From contig CAXHRJ010000002.1 of the NCBI GenBank assembly GCA_964018915.1, forward strand, positions 274,155-338,154: a DNA stretch of 64,000 bases, written 5' to 3'. The notes beneath the pieces are model-generated. The model was not told the DNA's origin. It did not search any database and saw only the letters and a program-made list of their open reading frames with translations. Numbering within the stretch: the stretch's first letter is position 1; the number at the start of each line of letters is the position of its first letter. Both the position numbers and the translations under genes were made by a program. Origin of the DNA: an uncultured Bacilli bacterium (GTDB lineage: Bacteria > Bacillota_I > Bacilli_A > RF39 > UBA660). Below, one piece after another: positions 4,047 through 59,144 of the stretch.

Positions 4047-4835
4047 ATGTTAGATAAAATATTAGTAAAAGAAATAGTCGCACCTGTAGTTATTATTGCT
4101 TCTAGTGTCCTTTTTTATATGATTGTAAGTCGGATTGTTAAAAAAGTTTTTCAAGTTAAGACAAAAAGAATAAATGAGAAAAGGCAAAAGACTTTTGTTT
4201 CTCTTGTAAATAATTGTATTCGCTATTTTATAATTGCGGTTGCACTTATGATGATATTAGAAGTTTATGGAATTGATACAAAGTCATTAGTAGCTTCTTT
4301 AGGAGTTTTAAGTTTAGTAGCAGGATTAGCATTACAAGATATTTTAAAAGATATTATAGTTGGATGTAGTATTATTTTAGAAGGCCAATTTTCAGTAGGA
4401 GATACTATTACAATAGCAGATTTTACTGGAACAGTAATGGATTTAGGGCTTAAAACAACGAGAATAAAGTCTTATACAGGCGATGTGAAAATTATAGCTA
4501 ATAGAAATATTACAGAGGTAATCAATCATACAATGGTAGAGAATAATGCTTTAGTAGATGTAATGGTAGATTATGGCACTAATTTGAAGCAAGCTAGAGA
4601 AGTATTAAATGAATTGTGTGAAAAATTCTCGAAAGAAAATAAACTTTCTAATCATGCTGAATGCTTAGGTGTAGAGAGCCTTGGAGATAGTGGAATTACA
4701 TTCCGTATTTCTATTCCGTCTCCTTACTCTGACAAATTTGCTTTAGCACGTAAGTTTAGAGAACAAGTGAAAGAAGAATTTGCACAACATGGAATTGTTA
4801 TTCCATATCCTCAGGTGGTGGTGCATAATGGATAA
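4047..4835 (+). CDS. Small-conductance mechanosensitive channel (MscS family)
   Basis: N-terminal TM helices followed by an MscS beta-domain-like segment (GDTITIADFTGTVMDLGLKTTRIKSYTGDVKIIANRNI). Confidence 0.65.
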   Translation: MLDKILVKEIVAPVVIIASSVLFYMIVSRIVKKVFQVKTKRINEKRQKTFVSLVNNCIRYFIIAVALMMILEVYGIDTKSLVASLGVLSLVAGLALQDILKDIIVGCSIILEGQFSVGDTITIADFTGTVMDLGLKTTRIKSYTGDVKIIANRNITEVINHTMVENNALVDVMVDYGTNLKQAREVLNELCEKFSKENKLSNHAECLGVESLGDSGITFRISIPSPYSDKFALARKFREQVKEEFAQHGIVIPYPQVVVHNG

Positions 4836-5013
4836 AGAATATAAAGTAGGCAGTGTTGTTGTAATGAAAAAAGAGCATCCTTGTGGAAGTAATGAATGGG
4901 TGATTACAAGAACAGGTGCCGATATTAAAATAAAATGTGAGAAATGTGGTAGGAGCATTATGCTACCTAGAATAGAATTTAATAAAAAACTAAAGAAAGT
5001 AATTAGTTTATAG
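4828..5013 (+). CDS. DUF951 family small protein (B. subtilis YyzM-like)
   Basis: 61-aa protein MDKEYKVGSVVVMKKEHPCGSNEWVITRTGADIKIKCEKCGRS... with CGS...CxxC. It sits downstream of spo0J as in Bacillus. The start ATG overlaps the MscS stop. Confidence 0.65.
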   Translation: MDKEYKVGSVVVMKKEHPCGSNEWVITRTGADIKIKCEKCGRSIMLPRIEFNKKLKKVISL

Positions 5014-5021
5014 GAGGAAAT

Positions 5022-6521
5022 ATGTTTAAGCGGAGCAAAAGCAAAATGAATTTTGGACCTATAACAGTTATGATTGGTATAGGGATTGTAATTGCATTAC
5101 TTAGTTTTCTTCTAAATAAATTGGGAGTACAGACTTATGTAACAGATCCTGATACTTTTGAAACGACGATTATAACCGTAAAAAATATTTTTAGTAGACA
5201 AGGAATCCGATTTATTTTTGGAGAATCAATTAGTAATTTTAGATTATTGGAACCTTTTGCAGTAGTTGTTGTTTCGTTAATTGCTGTTACTATATTAGAA
5301 GTAAGTGGACTTTTAAATTCACTTACTAATGGTCTAAAAAATGTAAAACCAAATGTAATTACCTTTTTTGTTTTATTAATTAGTGTTTTCTCAACAGTAA
5401 TTGGAGATTATAGTTATGCTATTTTATTTCCATTTGTAGCTTTGCTATATAAGAATATTGGTAGAGATCCAAAAGTTGGAGTTATGACAGCTTTTATAGG
5501 AATTACAATGGGCTATGGAGGCGGTTTCCTTTACACTTATCAAGATATGGTTCTTGGAAGAGTGGCGGAGCATGCTGCTATAGATGTTTTAGGAGAATAT
5601 TCTTTTGAGCCATGGTCTATGATTTTTATTGAAATAGTATCTGCTTTAACAATTACAATTTTAGGAACTATTTTGATAGAGAAGAAATTTCCTAAGAAGT
5701 ATAAAAAACCAGAAGAAAAGGAATATATTCATTCTCCAAAAGCATTAGCCATAACAATAGGAGTATTTGCTTTCTTTGCAACATTATTAATTTATGCAAT
5801 TGTACCAGGTTTACCATTATCAGGGTGGTTATTGGATATGAATGCAACAACCTATATGGAAAAATTGTTTGGGGAAAGTGCTCCATTTAGAGAAGGGATT
5901 TTAGTTATTTTTCTTGGTATTGCACTGATTTGTGGATATATTTATGGAAATATTTCAAGAAATATTAAAAGTAGCAAAGAATATAACAAAGCGATTTCCT
6001 TAACTTTCCAAAATACAGGTTTTATATTTGCAGGATTATTTTTCTTCTCTATTATGATGAGCATATTAGAGTGGACAAATTTAGGGGATTTAATTTCATT
6101 AAAATTAATTAATTCTATTAGTCAATCTCAAATGAGTGGAATATTTTTAATATTTCTTGTATTGATAGTTGGAGTAATCGTTACTATTGTGAATCCTACT
6201 ACAGTTCATAATTTTACGCTTATGTGCCCAACTTTAGTACCTTTATTAATCCGTGCAAATATATCTCCATCTTTTACCTTAATGATATTTAAAGCTGCAG
6301 ATTCTATTGGAAAATGTTTTACACCATTTTATGTTTTTTTCATTATTATGATAGGTTTCTTATATAAGTATGATACGCAAGATGAGGACATTACTTTCTT
6401 TGGAACTATGAAAAAGATGTTGCCAATTACTTTGTGGTTAGCACTTGCTTGGTTTGTAATCATTATAGGATGGAATTTATTGGGATTTAGAATTGGTATG
6501 GGAGTATCTTCGGTATTATAG
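5022..6521 (+). CDS. AbgT/MtrF family transporter
   Basis: Polytopic membrane protein whose N-terminal third resembles AbgT/MtrF (FAVVVVSLIAV..EVSGLLNSL ... GRDPKVGVMTAFIGITMGYGGGF). Confidence 0.55.
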   Translation: MFKRSKSKMNFGPITVMIGIGIVIALLSFLLNKLGVQTYVTDPDTFETTIITVKNIFSRQGIRFIFGESISNFRLLEPFAVVVVSLIAVTILEVSGLLNSLTNGLKNVKPNVITFFVLLISVFSTVIGDYSYAILFPFVALLYKNIGRDPKVGVMTAFIGITMGYGGGFLYTYQDMVLGRVAEHAAIDVLGEYSFEPWSMIFIEIVSALTITILGTILIEKKFPKKYKKPEEKEYIHSPKALAITIGVFAFFATLLIYAIVPGLPLSGWLLDMNATTYMEKLFGESAPFREGILVIFLGIALICGYIYGNISRNIKSSKEYNKAISLTFQNTGFIFAGLFFFSIMMSILEWTNLGDLISLKLINSISQSQMSGIFLIFLVLIVGVIVTIVNPTTVHNFTLMCPTLVPLLIRANISPSFTLMIFKAADSIGKCFTPFYVFFIIMIGFLYKYDTQDEDITFFGTMKKMLPITLWLALAWFVIIIGWNLLGFRIGMGVSSVL

Positions 6522-17316: not shown

Positions 17317-17449
17317 TTTGTATGTGTGGCATGCAGAGATATGTAAGGTTGCTGATACGCCAGGTTAAGTTGTAAGAAAAATAAACTGGAAAATCAGGTT
17401 TTTACATGGAGCAAGTCTATACAAGATATAGGCGAAGGGAGGACACAAA

Positions 17450-52418: not shown

Positions 52419-54008
52419 ATGAGTTTAGCTGATTTTTTAAAACCAAAAGACTTATTTTATCCTAATGTATTTTATGAGGGAGAATGGATTTTAGGGGGAG
52501 AATTTAATCCTGCTAATGTATATGAAGATTATTTATTATTAAATGCAAAAGTAGAGAATGGTGTTAATTGTTACCAAAGTTTTTTAGAAAAAAATTATTA
52601 TAGGCCTTTAACTGATATTTTAAATTCTAATAGCTTATCCCATACCTTTTTTCCTAAAATAGTATTAACAGTTAATGATCAAGAAGGAAATAGGACTGCT
52701 AATTTTGCTATGAGCGTATTTGTCTATCAACAAATATTAGGCTTACTTTTTGCTGGAGATGCTCAAAATAGGTTTCAAGAATTTATAGGAACAGTAAATA
52801 CTATCGAGGAGTGGATTCCGTTTTTAAAGCAATTATTAAAAGAAGATAGAAGAGTATACTTCGATGTTCAACAAAATCGAACAAAGTCTGCAAATTATGG
52901 AAATGTTTATCAATTATATTTAGATTATGTAAGACAATCTCAAAGCATGATGTCTTTTGATGAATTTCTAGATGGAAAAATAAGTGCTAGTACGAAACTT
53001 TTAGTATCTGCTAGATATTATCCAGAACTATTTAAAAAAGAAATTCCAAGCGAAGAATTAGTGAGTGCTTTTGATTATGATACTTTTTGTTTGGTAGCAG
53101 CTAAAAGTGCTTTAGATAGTTGTAGGACTACAGAAACGATTTCGAATTTAGTAGATAACTCTGCTGGTTATGTAAAGCTTTATTTAGATGCAGTAGAAAG
53201 AGTAAGACAAGAGAATCCTAATTATGATTGTGCTATGAAACAGCTTGATGAGAATGGCAATGTACATAAAATCAGAATACAAGATATTCAAAGAGAGTAT
53301 GAGGCACTACTTGCTAGGCATCCAGAATTTTCTTTCATTATTATAAGTGAAAATGAGGCTTCTGCTTTATTACGTAAAGAAGGAGTAGAAAAAGCAGGTA
53401 TAGATTGTTTTGATTTTAGTAAGAAAGATAATTCTGCAACTTTGGAAGCTATTTTAAAGAGATTAAAAGAGGATAGGGAATTAGCTGCTGAATGGGAGTT
53501 TATTAGAAAAGGTTCTGATGAATCAACAACTAGTATTCATCATTCCTCAGCCCTGTATCCTACGCAAGCTTTACCTGAAGATGAGAAGATAAGGCGGATG
53601 ATTGTTGGTCGTGAATATTTAGAAAATAGTGATTATGTTTATAAAATTTATGGTATTCATAAGTTTGAAGGATATATAGGTTATATTTATCCAAACGGTA
53701 CTGTTATTTTTGAAAAATATTACGAAAATATAAAAACTAAAAAGGTTGCATCTTCATCTGCTACCTATGTTATGCGTTTAGATAATTTTATGGAAATGTC
53801 AAAATTAAGTAAAACAGAAATTATTAGAATTATTCATAGGGATAGTGGAGCAAATGTAAAAAGAATCTTTCATAGAGAAAATATGGAAAGGTGGAAAAGC
53901 GATATTTTTAGAGTAATATCAGGAAGTGAGTATACAGAAGAAGTAATGAATTATATTAATGCGCTAATTTCCCGTAATGATTTGAAAAAAAGTGAGGTGA
54001 AGTCATGA
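52419..54008 (+). CDS. Hypothetical protein (529 aa)
   Basis: GGTGA RBS; an extended -10 TGaTATAAT lies upstream. No recognised motif. Confidence 0.45.
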   Translation: MSLADFLKPKDLFYPNVFYEGEWILGGEFNPANVYEDYLLLNAKVENGVNCYQSFLEKNYYRPLTDILNSNSLSHTFFPKIVLTVNDQEGNRTANFAMSVFVYQQILGLLFAGDAQNRFQEFIGTVNTIEEWIPFLKQLLKEDRRVYFDVQQNRTKSANYGNVYQLYLDYVRQSQSMMSFDEFLDGKISASTKLLVSARYYPELFKKEIPSEELVSAFDYDTFCLVAAKSALDSCRTTETISNLVDNSAGYVKLYLDAVERVRQENPNYDCAMKQLDENGNVHKIRIQDIQREYEALLARHPEFSFIIISENEASALLRKEGVEKAGIDCFDFSKKDNSATLEAILKRLKEDRELAAEWEFIRKGSDESTTSIHHSSALYPTQALPEDEKIRRMIVGREYLENSDYVYKIYGIHKFEGYIGYIYPNGTVIFEKYYENIKTKKVASSSATYVMRLDNFMEMSKLSKTEIIRIIHRDSGANVKRIFHRENMERWKSDIFRVISGSEYTEEVMNYINALISRNDLKKSEVKS

Positions 54009-54469
54009 CTTTAGAAAACTACCTATTAGGGCATATCATAGAAGAGAAACCAATAATTGAAGAGTTATTAAAAATTGATAATGCTGTTCAAAAAACAAAT
54101 TATACATATGCTACTTTTCTAAACAGAATAAGAAATGTCAAAAAATTAAATCTTTCTTTACCAGAACTTTGTAATTTTGTAACAGATGGAGATCCAGATA
54201 CTGTATATAATATTTTAATTACTTCCTCTTTTGTTAAGGGGATTCATATTGATAATTCTTTTGTTGCTCTTAATAAGTGGTTAGTAGAAAGAACGAAGGA
54301 ATATTATCAGGATAATAATAGAGAATTTAGTCTTTCTTTAGATATAGAAAAGGATTATAATAAATATATAGAAGAAGATACCAGTATTATTCTTTATGGG
54401 TTTGCCGAATTTGTAGAGGGAATGGAAGAAGTATTTCAAGATAAAAATATTGCTGTTATCAAAAAATAG
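54005..54469 (+). CDS. Hypothetical protein (154 aa), translationally coupled (ATGA overlap)
   Basis: Overlapping start and stop; no motif. Confidence 0.4.
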   Translation: MTLENYLLGHIIEEKPIIEELLKIDNAVQKTNYTYATFLNRIRNVKKLNLSLPELCNFVTDGDPDTVYNILITSSFVKGIHIDNSFVALNKWLVERTKEYYQDNNREFSLSLDIEKDYNKYIEEDTSIILYGFAEFVEGMEEVFQDKNIAVIKK

Positions 54470-54483
54470 AAAGAAGGAAATGT

Positions 54484-55227
54484 ATGCTAGAAAATAAAGT
54501 TGCTATTATAACAGGCGGAACAAGGGGAATTGGTTATGCAATCGCTAAAGTGTATGCACAAAATAAGGCTACCGTTGTTATTCTTGGCTCTAGAGAAGAA
54601 AGTGTGTCAAAAGCTTTAGAAAAGATGAGTGTAGATGTTCCAAGTGCTCAAGTTACAGGATATTATCCAAATTTATGTAATGATGCTGAAATAGAAGAAA
54701 CTTTTAGAAAAGTGAAAGAACAATATGGACATATTGACATTTTGGTAAATAATGCAGGAGTTTCTGCAAGAGATAAAATCTATGATTATAAAGTAGAAGA
54801 TTTTGAAAAGACAATGGATTTAAATGTTAATGCAGTCTTTGTCTGCTCAAAAGTAGCAGCTAAGTATATGAAAGAACAAGGTGGGGGAGTTATTTTAAAT
54901 ACAAGCTCTATGGTAAGTATTTATGGACAACCATCAGGTTCTGCTTATCCTACTAGCAAATTTGCAGTGAATGGTCTTACAAAATCTTTAGCTCGTGAAT
55001 TAGGACGCGATAATATTCGTGTAAATGCAGTAGCACCTGGTGTAACAAATACAGATATGGTTTCTGTATTACCAAAAGAAGTAATTGAACCAATTATTAA
55101 AACGATTCCACTTGGTAGGGTTGGGGAACCAGAGGATGTTGCGAATGCATTCTTATTCTTAGCCAGTGATTTAGCGTCTTATATAACTGGTGTAGTATTA
55201 TCCGTAGATGGGGCAGCTATGAGTTAA
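54484..55227 (+). CDS. SDR-family oxidoreductase (FabG-like 3-oxoacyl-ACP reductase)
   Basis: TGGTRGIG Rossmann motif, NNAG, and the catalytic S...Y..SK triad (YPTSK). Confidence 0.75.
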   Translation: MLENKVAIITGGTRGIGYAIAKVYAQNKATVVILGSREESVSKALEKMSVDVPSAQVTGYYPNLCNDAEIEETFRKVKEQYGHIDILVNNAGVSARDKIYDYKVEDFEKTMDLNVNAVFVCSKVAAKYMKEQGGGVILNTSSMVSIYGQPSGSAYPTSKFAVNGLTKSLARELGRDNIRVNAVAPGVTNTDMVSVLPKEVIEPIIKTIPLGRVGEPEDVANAFLFLASDLASYITGVVLSVDGAAMS

Positions 55228-55258
55228 GAGATACTTAGTATCTCTTTTCTTTTTTTTA
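55226..55258 (+). terminator. Rho-independent terminator
   Basis: AGAGATA-(cttag)-TATCTCT followed by a long T-run. Confidence 0.5.
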
Positions 55259-55289
55259 TGGTATACTAATAGACGAAAGAAGGTTTTCT

Positions 55290-56162
55290 ATGCTTAGAGT
55301 AAGTAATGAATGGATTGACTATGAATGTTTAGATGCAGGCAATGGAGAAAAATTAGAACGTTGGAAAGATGTTATTTTAAGACGTCCTGATCCACAAGCT
55401 ATGTGGCCACTTCTAGAGCGTGATAATAAATGGAAGAGTGCAGATGGTCACTACTTTAGAAGCAATCAAGGCGGAGGCCATTGGGAGTTTTCGAAGCAGT
55501 TACCAGAGTACTGGACAGTTAATTATAAGAACTTAACTTTTAAAGTAAGTCCTACTAATTTTAAACATACAGGATTATTTCCAGAACAAGCTACCAATTG
55601 GGATTTTATGATGGATAAAATAAAGAATAGTAATCGTCCTATTACTGTTTTGAATTTATTTGCTTATACTGGTGGTGCAACAATGGCATGTGCTAGTGCA
55701 GGTGCGATAGAAGTAGTCCATGTAGATGCTTCTAAAGGTATGACAGAATGGGCAAAAGAGAATCAAAGACTAAGTGGTTTAGAAGACTGCAAAATACGTT
55801 TTATTGTTGATGATTGTTTAAAATTTGTAGAAAGAGAAGCACGCCGTGGTAGAAAATATGATGTTATTATTATGGATCCTCCAAGTTATGGAAGAGGACC
55901 TAATGGAGAAGTATGGAAATTTGAACACAATATTCATAATCTAATTATGGCTTGTATGAAGATATTAAGTGATAAACCATTATTCTTTTTGATTAATTCT
56001 TATACAACAGGTATCTCTAGTACTGTTCTATATAATATTTTAAAAACAACTATGGAACCTAAGTATAAAGGAGTAGTGGATGCTGGAGAAGTAGGTCTTT
56101 CTATTACTAAGAATAATATGGTATTACCATGTGGAATCTATGGAAGATGGCAAGATGAATAA
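55290..56162 (+). CDS. Class I SAM-dependent methyltransferase (rRNA methyltransferase-like, RlmI/RlmK-type)
   Basis: LNLFAYTGGAT motif I-like and a DPPSY motif IV. Confidence 0.5.
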   Translation: MLRVSNEWIDYECLDAGNGEKLERWKDVILRRPDPQAMWPLLERDNKWKSADGHYFRSNQGGGHWEFSKQLPEYWTVNYKNLTFKVSPTNFKHTGLFPEQATNWDFMMDKIKNSNRPITVLNLFAYTGGATMACASAGAIEVVHVDASKGMTEWAKENQRLSGLEDCKIRFIVDDCLKFVEREARRGRKYDVIIMDPPSYGRGPNGEVWKFEHNIHNLIMACMKILSDKPLFFLINSYTTGISSTVLYNILKTTMEPKYKGVVDAGEVGLSITKNNMVLPCGIYGRWQDE

Positions 56163-56808
56163 TATTTTATATGAAGATAATCACATTATTGTAGTAGAAA
56201 AAAAAATCAATATTCCAGTACAGGAAGATGAAAGTAGAGATTCAGATTTATTAACTATCATTAAAGAATATTTAAAAGAAAAATATAAAAAACCAGGAAA
56301 TGTTTATTTAGGTCTTATCCATAGGTTAGATAGACCAGTAGGTGGGATAATGGTATTTGCTAAAACTAGTAAAGCTGCTTCTCGTTTAAGTGAACAAATG
56401 CGTACTCATCAGATAAAGAAGAGATACTATGCAGTAGTAGAAGGTATTCCTAAAGAAAAAGATACTTATATTGATAAACTATATAAAGATACTAAACTAA
56501 ATAAAGTAACTGTCGACAATAGGGGAAAAGAAGCTATTCTAAACTATGAAAGAGTAAAAACGTATAAAGGATATAGTCTAGTTGCTATTACGCTTAAAAC
56601 AGGCCGTAGTCATCAAATACGGGTACAATTTAGTAGTAGAGGAACTCCGCTATATGGGGATCAAAAATATAACAAGAATGCAAAAGTAGGAGAACAGATA
56701 GCGTTATATTCCTATTATTTATCTTTTAATCATCCTACTACAAAGGAAAAGATGGAGTTTAGCTTACCATTACCAGATAGAAAACCATTTATTTATTTTA
56801 AAGATTGA
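56155..56808 (+). CDS. RluA-family pseudouridine synthase
   Basis: HRLDRPVGG catalytic motif, about 218 aa. Start MNNILYEDNHIIVV overlaps the upstream methyltransferase by 8 nt. Confidence 0.75.
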   Translation: MNNILYEDNHIIVVEKKINIPVQEDESRDSDLLTIIKEYLKEKYKKPGNVYLGLIHRLDRPVGGIMVFAKTSKAASRLSEQMRTHQIKKRYYAVVEGIPKEKDTYIDKLYKDTKLNKVTVDNRGKEAILNYERVKTYKGYSLVAITLKTGRSHQIRVQFSSRGTPLYGDQKYNKNAKVGEQIALYSYYLSFNHPTTKEKMEFSLPLPDRKPFIYFKD

Positions 56809-56823
56809 TTTATTAGGAGCATT

Positions 56824-57415
56824 ATGAAAAAGGTGTTTGTAGTAGTTATCATATTATTTTTGTTTCCAATAGGAGTAGAAGCTTCTAGGGGATGTTGTTC
56901 TCACCATGGTGTGTAGTGCAGATGGTAGGCAAGTGTGTAAAGATGGTACTTTAAGTCCTTCTTGTACTTGTACTCCTCCAACTGTTTATGAATGTATGGA
57001 TAGTAGTGCGAAAAATTATAATCCTAAAGCCAATAAAAGTAATGGAAAATGTACTTATTATGTAAAAGGATGCACAGACGAAAATTCTATCAATTATAAT
57101 TCTAAAGCAGAAAAAGATGACGGAAGCTGTGTAAAAAAGGTTTCTGGTTGCACTGATGAAAATGCACTTAATTATAATAGTAAGGCAAATGTAGACGATG
57201 GAAACTGTGAGTATAGACAAGTAGAAATAAAAGATAATGTGGAAGAAAAAGATTCAAATTCTAATCAATTGCAAAGTACTAATGAAAATCGTTTGGATGA
57301 TATAAAGGAAGAAAAAGTAGCAGATTCAGAAGATAGCGGTTCAGCTGCTATAAGTTTGGGAATTCTAGGAGTTGCAGGATATTTTATTGGAAAAAGCAGA
57401 AAAAATAAAAAATAA
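56824..57415 (+). pseudogene. Secreted/anchored Cys-rich repeat protein interrupted by a +1 frame discontinuity (signal-peptide ORF 56824..56916, body 56906..57415)
   Basis: AGGAG RBS before ATG 56824, which encodes MKKVFVVVIILFLFPIGVEASRGCCSHHGV then stop. The body has three C-(T/M)-D-x-N/S-x-x-NYN-x-KA-x-x-DDG-x-C repeats and a C-terminal TM anchor (AAISLGILGVAGYFIGKSRKNKK). The body's own ATG has no RBS. Confidence 0.5.
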
Positions 57416-57416
57416 A

Positions 57417-57443
57417 ATGAACATTTATATGTTCTTTTTTTAT
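57417..57443 (+). terminator. Rho-independent terminator
   Basis: GAACAT-ttat-ATGTTC followed by TTTTTTT. Confidence 0.55.
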
Positions 57444-57495
57444 ACCTAAAAGTTCTTTCTAAAATTTCTTTTCATATAGTAAAATAGGTGATTTT

Positions 57496-58143
57496 ATGCG
57501 TCATAGATTTCATATGCTATTCTTATTGATATTAATGATTTGTACATTTTCCTTTTTAAAAGTAAGAGGGAATGAAATGCCATTAGCAGGAAAAATAATT
57601 TACTTAGATGCAGGACATGGAGGAGTAGATAGTGGTGCTAATTACAAAGCCATTTTAGAAAAAGATATTAATTTATCTATTGTAAAAATATTAGCACTCA
57701 AACTAGAATCTTTAGGAGCAACCGTTTATCTTACTCGTTATGGAGATTATGATTTAAGCAATATTGGGGTATACTATAGAAAGCAAAGTGATTTATATAA
57801 TCGTGCAAAGATAATCAATGAAAGCGAAGCAGATATTTATCTATCCATTCATTTAAATTCCACTACTTCTTCTACTTGGTCTGGTGCTCAAGTGTTTTAT
57901 GATGATATTCATTCTGAAAATATGAAAATAGCTGAAATTATGACAGAGGCATTGGGAACAAAAAGAGAAGTATCAGAGATAGAAACAATGTATTTTAATA
58001 GAAGAGTGAAAGTACCTGGAGTATTGATTGAAGCAGGCTTTTTATCAAATAGTAGTGATCGAGCAAAACTTGTAAAAGAAGAATATCAAGAGGAATTAGC
58101 AGATAAAATTGTTGCTGGCGTAATGAAATATTTCATCACATAA
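57496..58143 (+). CDS. N-acetylmuramoyl-L-alanine amidase (Amidase_3 family, CwlD-like) with an N-terminal TM/signal segment
   Basis: IYLDAGHGGVDSGA... and ADIYLSIHLNS motifs. Confidence 0.65.
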   Translation: MRHRFHMLFLLILMICTFSFLKVRGNEMPLAGKIIYLDAGHGGVDSGANYKAILEKDINLSIVKILALKLESLGATVYLTRYGDYDLSNIGVYYRKQSDLYNRAKIINESEADIYLSIHLNSTTSSTWSGAQVFYDDIHSENMKIAEIMTEALGTKREVSEIETMYFNRRVKVPGVLIEAGFLSNSSDRAKLVKEEYQEELADKIVAGVMKYFIT

Positions 58144-58205: not shown

Positions 58206-59144
58206 ATGAGAAGTAATAAGGTATTTAAAACATTAGATGAACAAATAGATATTCTTCGTTCTAAAGGCCTTACGATAAATGATGAGGAGAAAGCAAAAGA
58301 TATTCTGCTTAAGGAAAATTATTTCTTTATTAGTGGTTATAGACATCTATTTATGAAGTCTTATAATGATGGAAAATTTTTGCAAGGAACAACATTTGAT
58401 GAATTATATGCTGTATTTCAATTTGATCGCCAAGTTCGTAATATTATGTTTAAACATATCTTGGTGGTAGAAAATAACCTTAAATCTCTCATAAGCTATG
58501 TAATGTCTAAAAAGTATGGATTTCATGAAAAAGATTATTTAAATATGAATAACTTTACACAAGATCCAATGCGTATAAGGCAAGTACATGATGTCATTGA
58601 TAAGATGAAGAGACAAATAAGAGTCAATGGTAAGCAACACAGTGCAACTAACCATTATCTTAGCAATTATGGATATATTCCTCTTTGGATTTCTGTAAAA
58701 GTGTTATCTTTTGGTATAGTATCAGAACTTTATTCCATATTAAAGGAAGAGGAACAAGAAGAAATTTCAGATATTTATAAAGTAGATATTGCATCATTAA
58801 GTATTTATTTGTCTATTTTATCAAATTATCGAAATCTTTGTGCACATGAAGATATTTTGTATGATCATCGTACCCAGAGATCTATTCCAGATACGAAGTA
58901 TCATTATCAATTAGATATCGAAAGAAATGAAGAGGGAGAATATATTTATGGGAAGAATGATTTATTCTCAGTGATTATTATTTTAAGGCAGATGTTAACG
59001 GAGGAAGAATTCAGAAATTTAGTTTATGAAGTTGGTTATGAAATTGACATATTAGATGGCAAATTAAATGTATTACCATTAAATCAGTTACTTAATAAAA
59101 TAAGTTTTCCAAATACTTGGCGGAATATTTTAGATATTCATTAG
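58206..59144 (+). CDS. Abortive-infection protein of the AbiD/AbiF (Abi_2) family
   Basis: Abi_2-like conserved C-terminal region (VLSFGIVSELYS ... YRNLCAHEDILYD). An extended -10 TGtgaTATAAT lies upstream. Confidence 0.6.
   Translation: MRSNKVFKTLDEQIDILRSKGLTINDEEKAKDILLKENYFFISGYRHLFMKSYNDGKFLQGTTFDELYAVFQFDRQVRNIMFKHILVVENNLKSLISYVMSKKYGFHEKDYLNMNNFTQDPMRIRQVHDVIDKMKRQIRVNGKQHSATNHYLSNYGYIPLWISVKVLSFGIVSELYSILKEEEQEEISDIYKVDIASLSIYLSILSNYRNLCAHEDILYDHRTQRSIPDTKYHYQLDIERNEEGEYIYGKNDLFSVIIILRQMLTEEEFRNLVYEVGYEIDILDGKLNVLPLNQLLNKISFPNTWRNILDIH

Follow-up and report, generated by a model that had tools for sequence, protein, structure and literature searches.

Organization of the disrupted locus

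The stretch of DNA analysed in this work (the window, 64,000 nucleotides from an uncultured Bacilli bacterium) contains, between positions 56824 and 57415 of its forward strand, two overlapping reading frames that together carry the parts of a secreted, membrane-anchored, Cys-rich repeat protein. The upstream frame, ORF1, has a well-placed ribosome-binding site and start codon, encodes a signal peptide and reaches its stop after 30 codons, giving the product MKKVFVVVIILFLFPIGVEASRGCCSHHGV. A TAGGAG occupies the place equivalent to the window's AGGAG in both positional orthologues described below, and the signal peptide columns M1, P15 and A20 are conserved at 89–97% in the family alignment. 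The downstream frame, ORF2, lies at +1 and opens at an ATG located 8 nt upstream of the ORF1 stop. It runs through three repeats, an acidic linker, a putative membrane anchor and a basic tail, and contains no additional stop or frameshift. The elements recognized in a preliminary description of the locus were all confirmed here, at the positions given there. Its count of three repeats also stands, whereas its unit of about 22 aa does not, each repeat measuring 20 aa from Cys to Cys within a 26-aa period. The features of the locus are as follows.

56815–56819, forward strand: AGGAG, Shine-Dalgarno-like, read from the sequence, 4 nt 5' of the ATG at 56824
56824–56916, forward strand: ORF1, 5' part of the disrupted gene, ATG at 56824, 30 codons, TAG at 56914–56916
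56824–56883, forward strand: part coding for the signal peptide MKKVFVVVIILFLFPIGVEA, predicted cleavage after VEA, judged by eye
56884–56980, forward strand: remains of an N-terminal Cys-rich domain (SRGCCSHHG and CSADGRQVCKDGTLSPSCTCTPP), Dis2/YdcA-like by profile and hhalign matches
56906–57415, forward strand: ORF2, 3' part of the disrupted gene, +1 frame, 169 aa
56909–56914, forward strand: (GT)3 run, GGTGTGTAG, made by the junction (…GGTG joined to TGT…) with no prior tract
56910–56912, forward strand: deletion junction, 11 nt missing between …CATGGTG and TGTAGT…, the leftover G at 56911 shifting the frame
56990–56992, forward strand: GAA codon, giving Glu at a position that is always Gly in 111 homologues (G60E)
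56990–57053, 57068–57131 and 57146–57209, forward strand: direct DNA repeats, 78-nt (26-aa) period, 63–73% DNA identity
56993–57052, forward strand: repeat 1, Cys-to-Cys core CMDSSAKNYNPKANKSNGKC, 20 aa, unit profile A3
57071–57130, forward strand: repeat 2, Cys-to-Cys core CTDENSINYNSKAEKDDGSC, 20 aa, unit profile A3
57149–57208, forward strand: repeat 3, Cys-to-Cys core CTDENALNYNSKANVDDGNC, 20 aa, unit profile A3
57209–57343, forward strand: acidic low-complexity linker, 45 aa with 14 D/E and 6 K/R
57344–57391, forward strand: hydrophobic segment AAISLGILGVAGYFIG, putative membrane anchor
57392–57412, forward strand: basic tail KSRKNKK, with the stop codon at 57413–57415

The C-terminal arrangement of hydrophobic segment and basic tail does not include an LPXTG motif before the hydrophobic segment, where the window reads …SEDSGSAAISLG… and the orthologues …DETGST… or …NDGGAA…. 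On the orthologue, Pfam Gram_pos_anchor matches only below threshold, scoring 18.1 bits where the cut-off is 20. The linker is poorly conserved in the family alignment, and its counterpart in the orthologue model has a pLDDT below 50. A promoter and terminator scan gave no signal above shuffled expectation and no terminator. Rfam, searched over the whole window, gave no match near the locus, its only hit being an S10 leader at 17328–17435, and no paralogue of the gene was found within the window. The neighbouring genes encode SDR, methyltransferase, RluA, Amidase_3, Abi_2, HtrA and GT2 proteins.

Homologues and genomic context

A search with the protein obtained by joining the two frames returned 213 homologues, mostly of 170–280 aa, from hosts labelled as uncultured Bacilli, Firmicutes or Tenericutes bacteria; the family comes mostly from metagenome-assembled genomes of gut ‘Bacilli’. 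A signal peptide followed by the N-terminal motif, always with the spacing CC-x8-C, is present in 119 of the best 120 of these homologues. The single N-terminally truncated entry among them, P0001, is identical to ORF2 and is the window's own protein. The family consensus consists of a signal peptide, RGCCSHHGGV[AS]GCxSxG[RK]QxCxDGTLSPSCTCTP, three to five GCTDxxAxNYNxxAxxDDGSCxYY units, an acidic linker that varies, a hydrophobic helix and KKKK. Among the best homologues, 68 proteins carry three repeats, 44 carry four and seven carry five, and the three repeats of the window are thus normal. The repeat unit was found 385 times across 111 homologues and is evidently not a chance occurrence.

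Positional orthologues were identified on two Logan contigs, L002 and L003, where the gene is intact, its two products measuring 223 and 224 aa. Nucleotide identity with the window is about 82% for both. The order on L003 is SDR, methyltransferase, RluA, the gene, an extra ORF of 460 aa and Amidase_3, while the 1.8-kb contig L002 carries RluA, the gene and Amidase_3. Neighbour proteins on both contigs are 85–98% identical to those of the window. Beyond these two closest relatives synteny is not conserved, and the neighbourhood therefore gives no hint of function.

Since the homologues are single ORFs that include the signal peptide, ORF2 does not appear to be an independent gene, and 56824–57415 is best read as one gene whose normal state is a single ORF, in agreement with the preliminary description of one frame-disrupted gene. 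Comparison with orthologues for an intact single ORF, the check proposed there, found the gene intact with its signal peptide on L002, on L003 and in 119 of the best 120 homologues, none of which starts at the internal ATG. That ATG is built from the His-Gly codons of the N-terminal motif and is fortuitous. In the tblastn alignment, homology of ORF2 to the orthologue begins at 56912 and not at the ORF2 ATG, and no AGGAG lies within 5–10 nt of it.

An 11-nt deletion splits the N-terminal domain

Alignment of the DNA placed CACCATGGTG / TGTAGTGCAGATGG of the window against CATCATGGTG (GAGTAGCAGGA) TGTAATGCAAATGG of L003 and CATCATGGAG (GAGTATCAGGT) TGTACT of L002, where the parentheses enclose the bases missing from the window. 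In a longer rendering the junction reads CACCATGGTG·TGTAGTGCAGATGGTAGG in the window, CATCATGGTG (GAGTAGCAGGA) TGTAATGCAAATGGTAGA in L003 and CATCATGGAG (GAGTATCAGGT) TGTACTTCTAATGGAAAA in L002. The missing bases correspond to GAGTAGCAGGA of L003 and to the codons for G-V-A-G. A tblastn search with the orthologue P0003 agreed with this placement, residues 1–29 matching frame 1 at 56824–56910 with 79% identity and residues 34–224 matching frame 2 at 56912–57409, while residues 30–33 (G-V-A-G) were absent. The affected columns are among the most constant of the family, with G30 conserved at 100%, V31 at 95% and G33 at 98%, and the adjoining C34 at 99%. The lesion is a clean 11-nt deletion in which the codons for GV[AS]G, located after the CC pair and before the third Cys, were removed.

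A smaller repair was considered. Any deletion of one nucleotide between 56895 and 56916 gives an ORF of 196 aa, yet none restores the family motif, and single-nucleotide repair was dropped in favour of the 11-nt deletion for that reason. The preliminary description had joined the frames by skipping one nucleotide, which holds as arithmetic but not as the origin of the gene; the join it proposed, …HHGV-SADG…, drops the Cys conserved at 99%. Its suggestion that an indel or slippage of one nucleotide within a GT repeat caused the break likewise gives way to the deletion, of which the (GT)3 run is a by-product. At the position of this run the orthologues read GGAGGAGTATCAGGTTGT or GGTGGAGTAGCAGGATGT, with the GT tract absent, and all 14 of the representative genomes have intact GCCSxHGGVxGC codons and no GT tract.

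The region 56824–57415 is thus very probably one gene that a deletion of 11 nt put out of action recently, an ordinary young pseudogene, and of the three causes offered in the preliminary description recent pseudogenization is the one that fits. Loss of the G-V-[AS]-G codons shifts the frame by +1, and translation from the true start halts after 30 codons, leaving the signal peptide and 10 residues. The body encoded by ORF2 is deprived of both signal peptide and ribosome-binding site and, if made by reinitiation, would stay in the reducing cytoplasm and could not be displayed. The comparisons establish the deletion, its recurrence in independent assemblies, the intact state of all relatives and the domain relationships. 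Loss of function in this copy is inferred, and so are the membrane topology, the way in which the disulfides pair and a role of the intact protein at the surface or in adhesion.

Alternative explanations for the frame disruption

The same junction was found in three assemblies, namely the window and those of SRR12959821 and SRR12959766, a comparison of assemblies, in which intact or (GT)4 alleles present at low frequency in the population would not show. A 1562-nt Logan contig from SRR12959821 (L001) matches 56119–57680 and carries the junction, with a single mismatch at 57613 in the amidase gene, and a 6.8-kb contig from SRR12959766 (L086) is 100% identical over 53655–57209, junction included. 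The three assemblies belong to one SRA series (SRR129597xx–98xx), are nearly identical and may sample one circulating strain rather than the species as a whole. An assembly or sequencing artefact, in which the true gene is intact and 11 nt were dropped during assembly, would draw on the repeat-rich nature of the locus, as the gene is hard to assemble and the per-run Logan contigs end within the repeat region (57209/57214 and 57322). The lesion, however, is found in unique sequence, some 80 nt upstream of where the first repeat begins, and a clean loss of 11 nt is atypical of short-read or homopolymer error. The next-best protein match is 58% identical, no near-identical intact allele exists among 5.8 billion protein clusters, and a variable-gap DNA pattern for intact or alternative alleles (0–14 nt spacer) had no matches in JGI metagenomes. 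Because the identical lesion is present in the per-run assemblies of two other runs, the error suggested in the preliminary description was ruled against, and an artefact is considered very unlikely. Regulated expression, by programmed +1 frameshifting at GTG-TAG or by phase variation through slippage of the GT run, is given an equally slight chance. Phase variation commonly targets surface proteins, the gene body is otherwise well preserved, and a change from (GT)3 to (GT)4 restores the frame as …HHGVCSADG… with the third Cys kept. A minimal switch of this kind, in which one added GT reunites signal peptide and body as …GCCSHHGVCSADGRQVC… with a head loop three residues shorter, would mean that the strain toggles display of a surface protein and that the preserved ORF2 reflects intermittent continued use, but it is considered highly improbable. 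The tract has three units, far below known contingency tracts, and exists only through the deletion junction; the restored product would still be without three or four near-invariant residues, and the invariant CC-x8-C spacing would be broken; no length polymorphism was seen among the three assemblies. Against programmed frameshifting, the site occurs in no orthologue (119 other best homologues and 14 representative genomes are in-frame), and the context GGU GUG UAG U is not prfB-like, as the tRNA-Val on GUG cannot re-pair on UGU under the established rules of prfB- and antizyme-type frameshifting. No Shine-Dalgarno-like stimulator lies near the stop, the nearest purine-rich AGGGG being over 20 nt upstream, and the predicted fold of the 96 nt downstream does not surpass that of shuffled sequences (z = −0.96). 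The programmed or phase-variable expression raised in the preliminary description is not supported.

A further alternative keeps both pieces in use, with ORF1 supplying a short secreted Cys peptide (SRGCCSHHGV after cleavage) and ORF2 a reinitiated or translationally coupled, tail-anchored cytoplasmic protein. ORF1 does retain ribosome-binding site, start codon and an intact signal peptide, ORF2 is uninterrupted, and the overlap of the ORF2 ATG (56906) with the end of ORF1 is a geometry that permits coupling or reinitiation. Neither piece, however, is a separate gene in any of the best 120 of the 213 homologues, and the ORF2 ATG is a chance product of the His-Gly codons. Cytoplasmic folding is unlikely for disulfide modules of extracellular type, whose solved relatives are the periplasmic Dis2, with five disulfides (PMC8486379), and the lumenal MPEG1. 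The positive tail after the transmembrane segment implies an N-out topology, which requires the lost signal peptide. Continued use of both pieces is therefore thought improbable, if slightly less so than either an artefact or regulated expression.

Age and significance of the break

Outside the deletion, the product of the window agrees with its homologues at 53 of the 56 columns conserved at 85% or more, the only departures being G60E, T62M and A92S, and Met62 and Ser92 are each seen in intact family members. Pairwise dN/dS is 0.22–0.24 between the window and its orthologues, 0.19 between the orthologues and 0.02–0.08 for the flanking genes. Such low decay is in keeping with a surface protein that evolves fast and was inactivated very recently, although alone it would be no proof of lost function, and the near-intact remainder with its marginally raised dN/dS would also fit continued use. 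Evolving faster than the neighbouring genes and, as it appears, being lost in this lineage is how exposed surface proteins usually behave when hosts or phages exert pressure on them.

Read as a young pseudogene, the locus resembles ordinary bacterial pseudogenes caused by a short out-of-frame deletion, in that one short deletion truncates the product and an intact orthologue in a sister species occupies the same position. There is no mechanistic distinction from such cases, and the only oddity is that the junction chances to yield a short GT run and an ATG in frame, and so mimics a recoding site. As a frameshift it would be one more strain- or species-specific gene loss, of little weight. It does serve as a warning that a deletion junction can imitate a slippery site together with an internal start codon.

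Architecture of the intact family

The intact protein is predicted to be a type-I membrane-anchored surface protein with a Sec signal peptide, a head, a series of modules, a linker, a transmembrane helix and a cytoplasmic tail rich in Lys. The head would be a small six-Cys Dis2/YdcA-like domain (GCCSxHGGVxGC-x3-G-x-Q-x-C-x-DGTxSPSCTC), and the stalk would consist of three to five tandem 26-aa modules with two conserved Cys each (GCTDxxAxNYNxxAxxDDGSC). In this arrangement the repeats, stapled by disulfides, may act as a stiff stalk on which the Dis2-like head is presented, and the disordered acidic linker would span the cell wall. It is plausible that the intact protein serves in binding or adhesion. 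An AlphaFold2 model of the orthologue P0003, built with 111 sequences, had a pLDDT of 86–98 at residues 21–160, with the head residues 21–60 at 86–92.

Comparison of the family profile with the PDB identified Legionella Dis2 (7MUC and 7MUD, chain AN; E = 7e-12), with matches to both lobes (32 bits for lobe 1 and 21 bits for lobe 2). Foldseek against the PDB also ranked 7MUD first, with a probability of 0.97 and weak E-values (0.26 or worse), which is attributed to the elongated shape of the model, made up of a string of very small modules. Matches of sequence profiles to 7MUC/7MUD and to the MPEG1 entries described below were more informative than Foldseek. An hhalign comparison with E. coli YdcA, using a manually entered YdcA sequence, gave 96% probability and E = 4e-9. 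Weak matches were obtained to NCBIfam PRK10040 (E = 0.0016 with the joined protein, sub-threshold) and to phrog_6000. A Pfam scan of the joined protein at E up to 10 returned only the sub-threshold PF25721 (T4_Y03C), at E = 0.03, the range for this match being E = 0.006–0.03 across the scans made. Judging by titles, none of the papers listed by a literature search on E. coli YdcA is a study of the protein.

Dis2 (Lpg0823), YdcA (PRK10040) and phrog_6000 share with the family a signal peptide followed by GCCSxxGG-x2-C-x3-G-x2-VCxDG-x-S-x2-C-C. In Gram-negative bacteria, Dis2 and YdcA are periplasmic and small, made of two lobes or one and nothing more, whereas the family described here, from low-GC gut ‘Bacilli’, places a single lobe as the distal head of a longer, membrane-anchored repeat protein. 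In the window's copy, unlike Dis2, the domain is split by the deletion, with four residues gone. Dis2 of Legionella pneumophila is a component of the outer-membrane cap in Dot/Icm, a type IV secretion system, and its lobes are pinned by the five disulfides, its function being not known (PMC8486379). It is dispensable for assembly of the secretion system and for stability of the complex (PMC12716638). Neither Dot/Icm genes nor those of another secretion system were found in the neighbourhood of the locus.

The repeat profile A3, 26 columns built from 56 units, matched a single region of the PDB, residues 332–353 of the solved perforin-2/MPEG1 chains, with E = 2.3e-7 for the human and 3.3e-5 for the mouse protein (6U2J, 6U23, 6SB1 and 6SB3). 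The preliminary description had likened the repeat to Ca-binding loops, for which there is no Pfam match (EF-hand, Excalibur, thrombospondin type 3 and others), the only solved relative being this MPEG1 module. Its statement that the repeat could not be placed in a family still holds for Pfam, but a relative is now available in the PDB. The MPEG1 module has the same length and two-Cys framing as the family unit, and fits the 22-aa pattern G-C-T-D-x4-N-[FY]-N-x2-A-x2-D-D-G-S-C with significant profile similarity. It is present as one copy inside a eukaryotic pore-forming protein, whereas the family has three to five tandem copies in the stalk of a bacterial surface protein. In Ni et al. 2020, a ‘truncated EGF-like’ link connects the MACPF domain with the P2 domain, the MACPF-EGF region comprising residues 31–371 (PMC6989145). 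The 332–353 stretch comes after the MACPF-EGF region, opens the isolated P2 crystal construct 6SB1 and appears, judging by its position, to be the link named in that paper. The likeness between the family unit and the MPEG1 module may reflect common descent or transfer.

The intact family may represent an undescribed class of surface proteins of gut Bacilli that combines a disulfide knot of Dis2/YdcA type with tandem perforin-2 modules, a reading that is more likely than the (GT)3 switch. As a modest by-product of this work, a widespread family (more than 200 clusters, with no above-threshold Pfam match) can now be described by its head, modules, linker and transmembrane anchor. The module itself extends further. 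A genome scan returned hundreds of Flavobacteriales and other Bacteroidota loci that match the repeat part only (query residues ~56–160), and Foldseek against BFVD, with E-values down to 1e-14, returned proteins of Virus NIOZ-UU157, a secretion system C-terminal sorting domain protein, a crassvirus muzzle-protein C-terminal-domain protein and cyanophage PA14-domain proteins, among others. These marine Flavobacteriales and marine phage proteins have tandem copies of the module in common with the family, but are much larger, multi-domain proteins without the Dis2/YdcA-like head and the C-terminal transmembrane anchor.

Relatives of the head and repeat domains

The surface-protein family to which the split gene belongs couples a six-Cys head to two-Cys repeats and a membrane anchor, and these parts were located in the window as follows.

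56884–56980, + strand: N-terminal six-Cys domain (equivalent to residues 21–55 of the orthologous protein P0003)
56993–57208, + strand: repeat region, 22-aa unit GCTDxxAxNYNxxAxxDDGSC (repeat-unit profile A3)
57320–57412, + strand: C-terminus (family alignment A1)

In a profile search of the PDB, the N-terminal six-Cys domain of the family matched Legionella Dis2/Lpg0823 in both of its lobes. This component of the Dot/Icm cap is reported to lack structural neighbours. Further matches of this domain were to E. coli YdcA and to the phage family phrog_6000. In contrast to Dis2 itself, the family presents this orphan fold in a Gram-positive, membrane-anchored setting.

The 22-aa repeat unit, searched as profile A3 against the PDB, matched a single module of perforin-2/MPEG1 (residues 332–353, E = 2.3e-7), with no other kind of solved relative recovered. 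Judged by its position, this module appears to be the ‘truncated EGF-like’ link described in the structure papers (PMC6989145). Tandem copies of the unit were found by genome scan in proteins of marine Flavobacteriales, and likewise in marine phage proteins by a Foldseek search of BFVD.

At the C-terminus, the family alignment shows a short conserved segment resembling [DE]-x-[ST/G]-G-[SA] upstream of the hydrophobic anchor. The LPXTG motif is absent from this region despite a sub-threshold match to the Pfam LPXTG-anchor profile. This arrangement might represent a sorting or processing signal of another type, or no more than a transmembrane anchor.

Full-length members, possessing both the head domain and the repeats, were present on three contigs (L004, L008 and L016) binned as Muribaculaceae or Bacteroides helcogenes, while the remaining full-length members all derive from Bacilli, Firmicutes or Tenericutes MAGs. 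These placements may reflect either mis-binning or lateral transfer.

Assembly and gene calling at the locus

Three per-run Logan contigs of the same species (L086, L084 and L085) end inside the gene, at window positions 57209–57214 and 57322, the breaks falling in the linker or directly behind the third repeat. Assembly has a weak point in the repeat region. The 11-nt deletion that splits the gene lies upstream of the repeats, in unique sequence.

On the Logan contig L001, a 265-aa product was called at 1–798 (window 56119–56916), in which RluA is fused to ORF1, the 5’ fragment of the split gene, by reading through a TGA at window 56806–56808. For this contig of 30% GC, the gene caller seems to have worked with genetic code 4. 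The TGA is a genuine stop, because the RluA orthologue on the sister-species contig L003 ends with TAG one codon further on and long ORFs throughout the window stay intact under code 11.

Neighbouring genes and other features of the window

The following features lie elsewhere in the window.

52419–54469: pair of neighbouring ORFs of 529 aa and 154 aa with a 4-nt overlap, upstream of the SDR gene
58206–59144: Abi_2 (abortive-infection-like) gene, Pfam E = 3.5e-40
17328–17435: S10-Clostridia ribosomal-protein leader (RF03136), Rfam 36.2 bits, slightly over the gathering score

The 529-aa and 154-aa ORFs have no Pfam match on record, and their counterparts on L003 share 79% and 60% protein identity, respectively. 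On L003, an additional 460-aa ORF (4064–5446) with no Pfam match separates the surface-protein gene from the Amidase_3 gene; this ORF is lacking from both the window and the second sister-species contig, L002. The Abi_2 gene of the window is flanked by the Amidase_3 gene and an HtrA-like protease gene; the L002 and L003 contigs reach only into the amidase gene, short of the Abi_2 position. The S10-Clostridia leader was the only match in an Rfam scan of the whole window, which has a GC content of ~30% and a GC skew that is positive throughout on the + strand.
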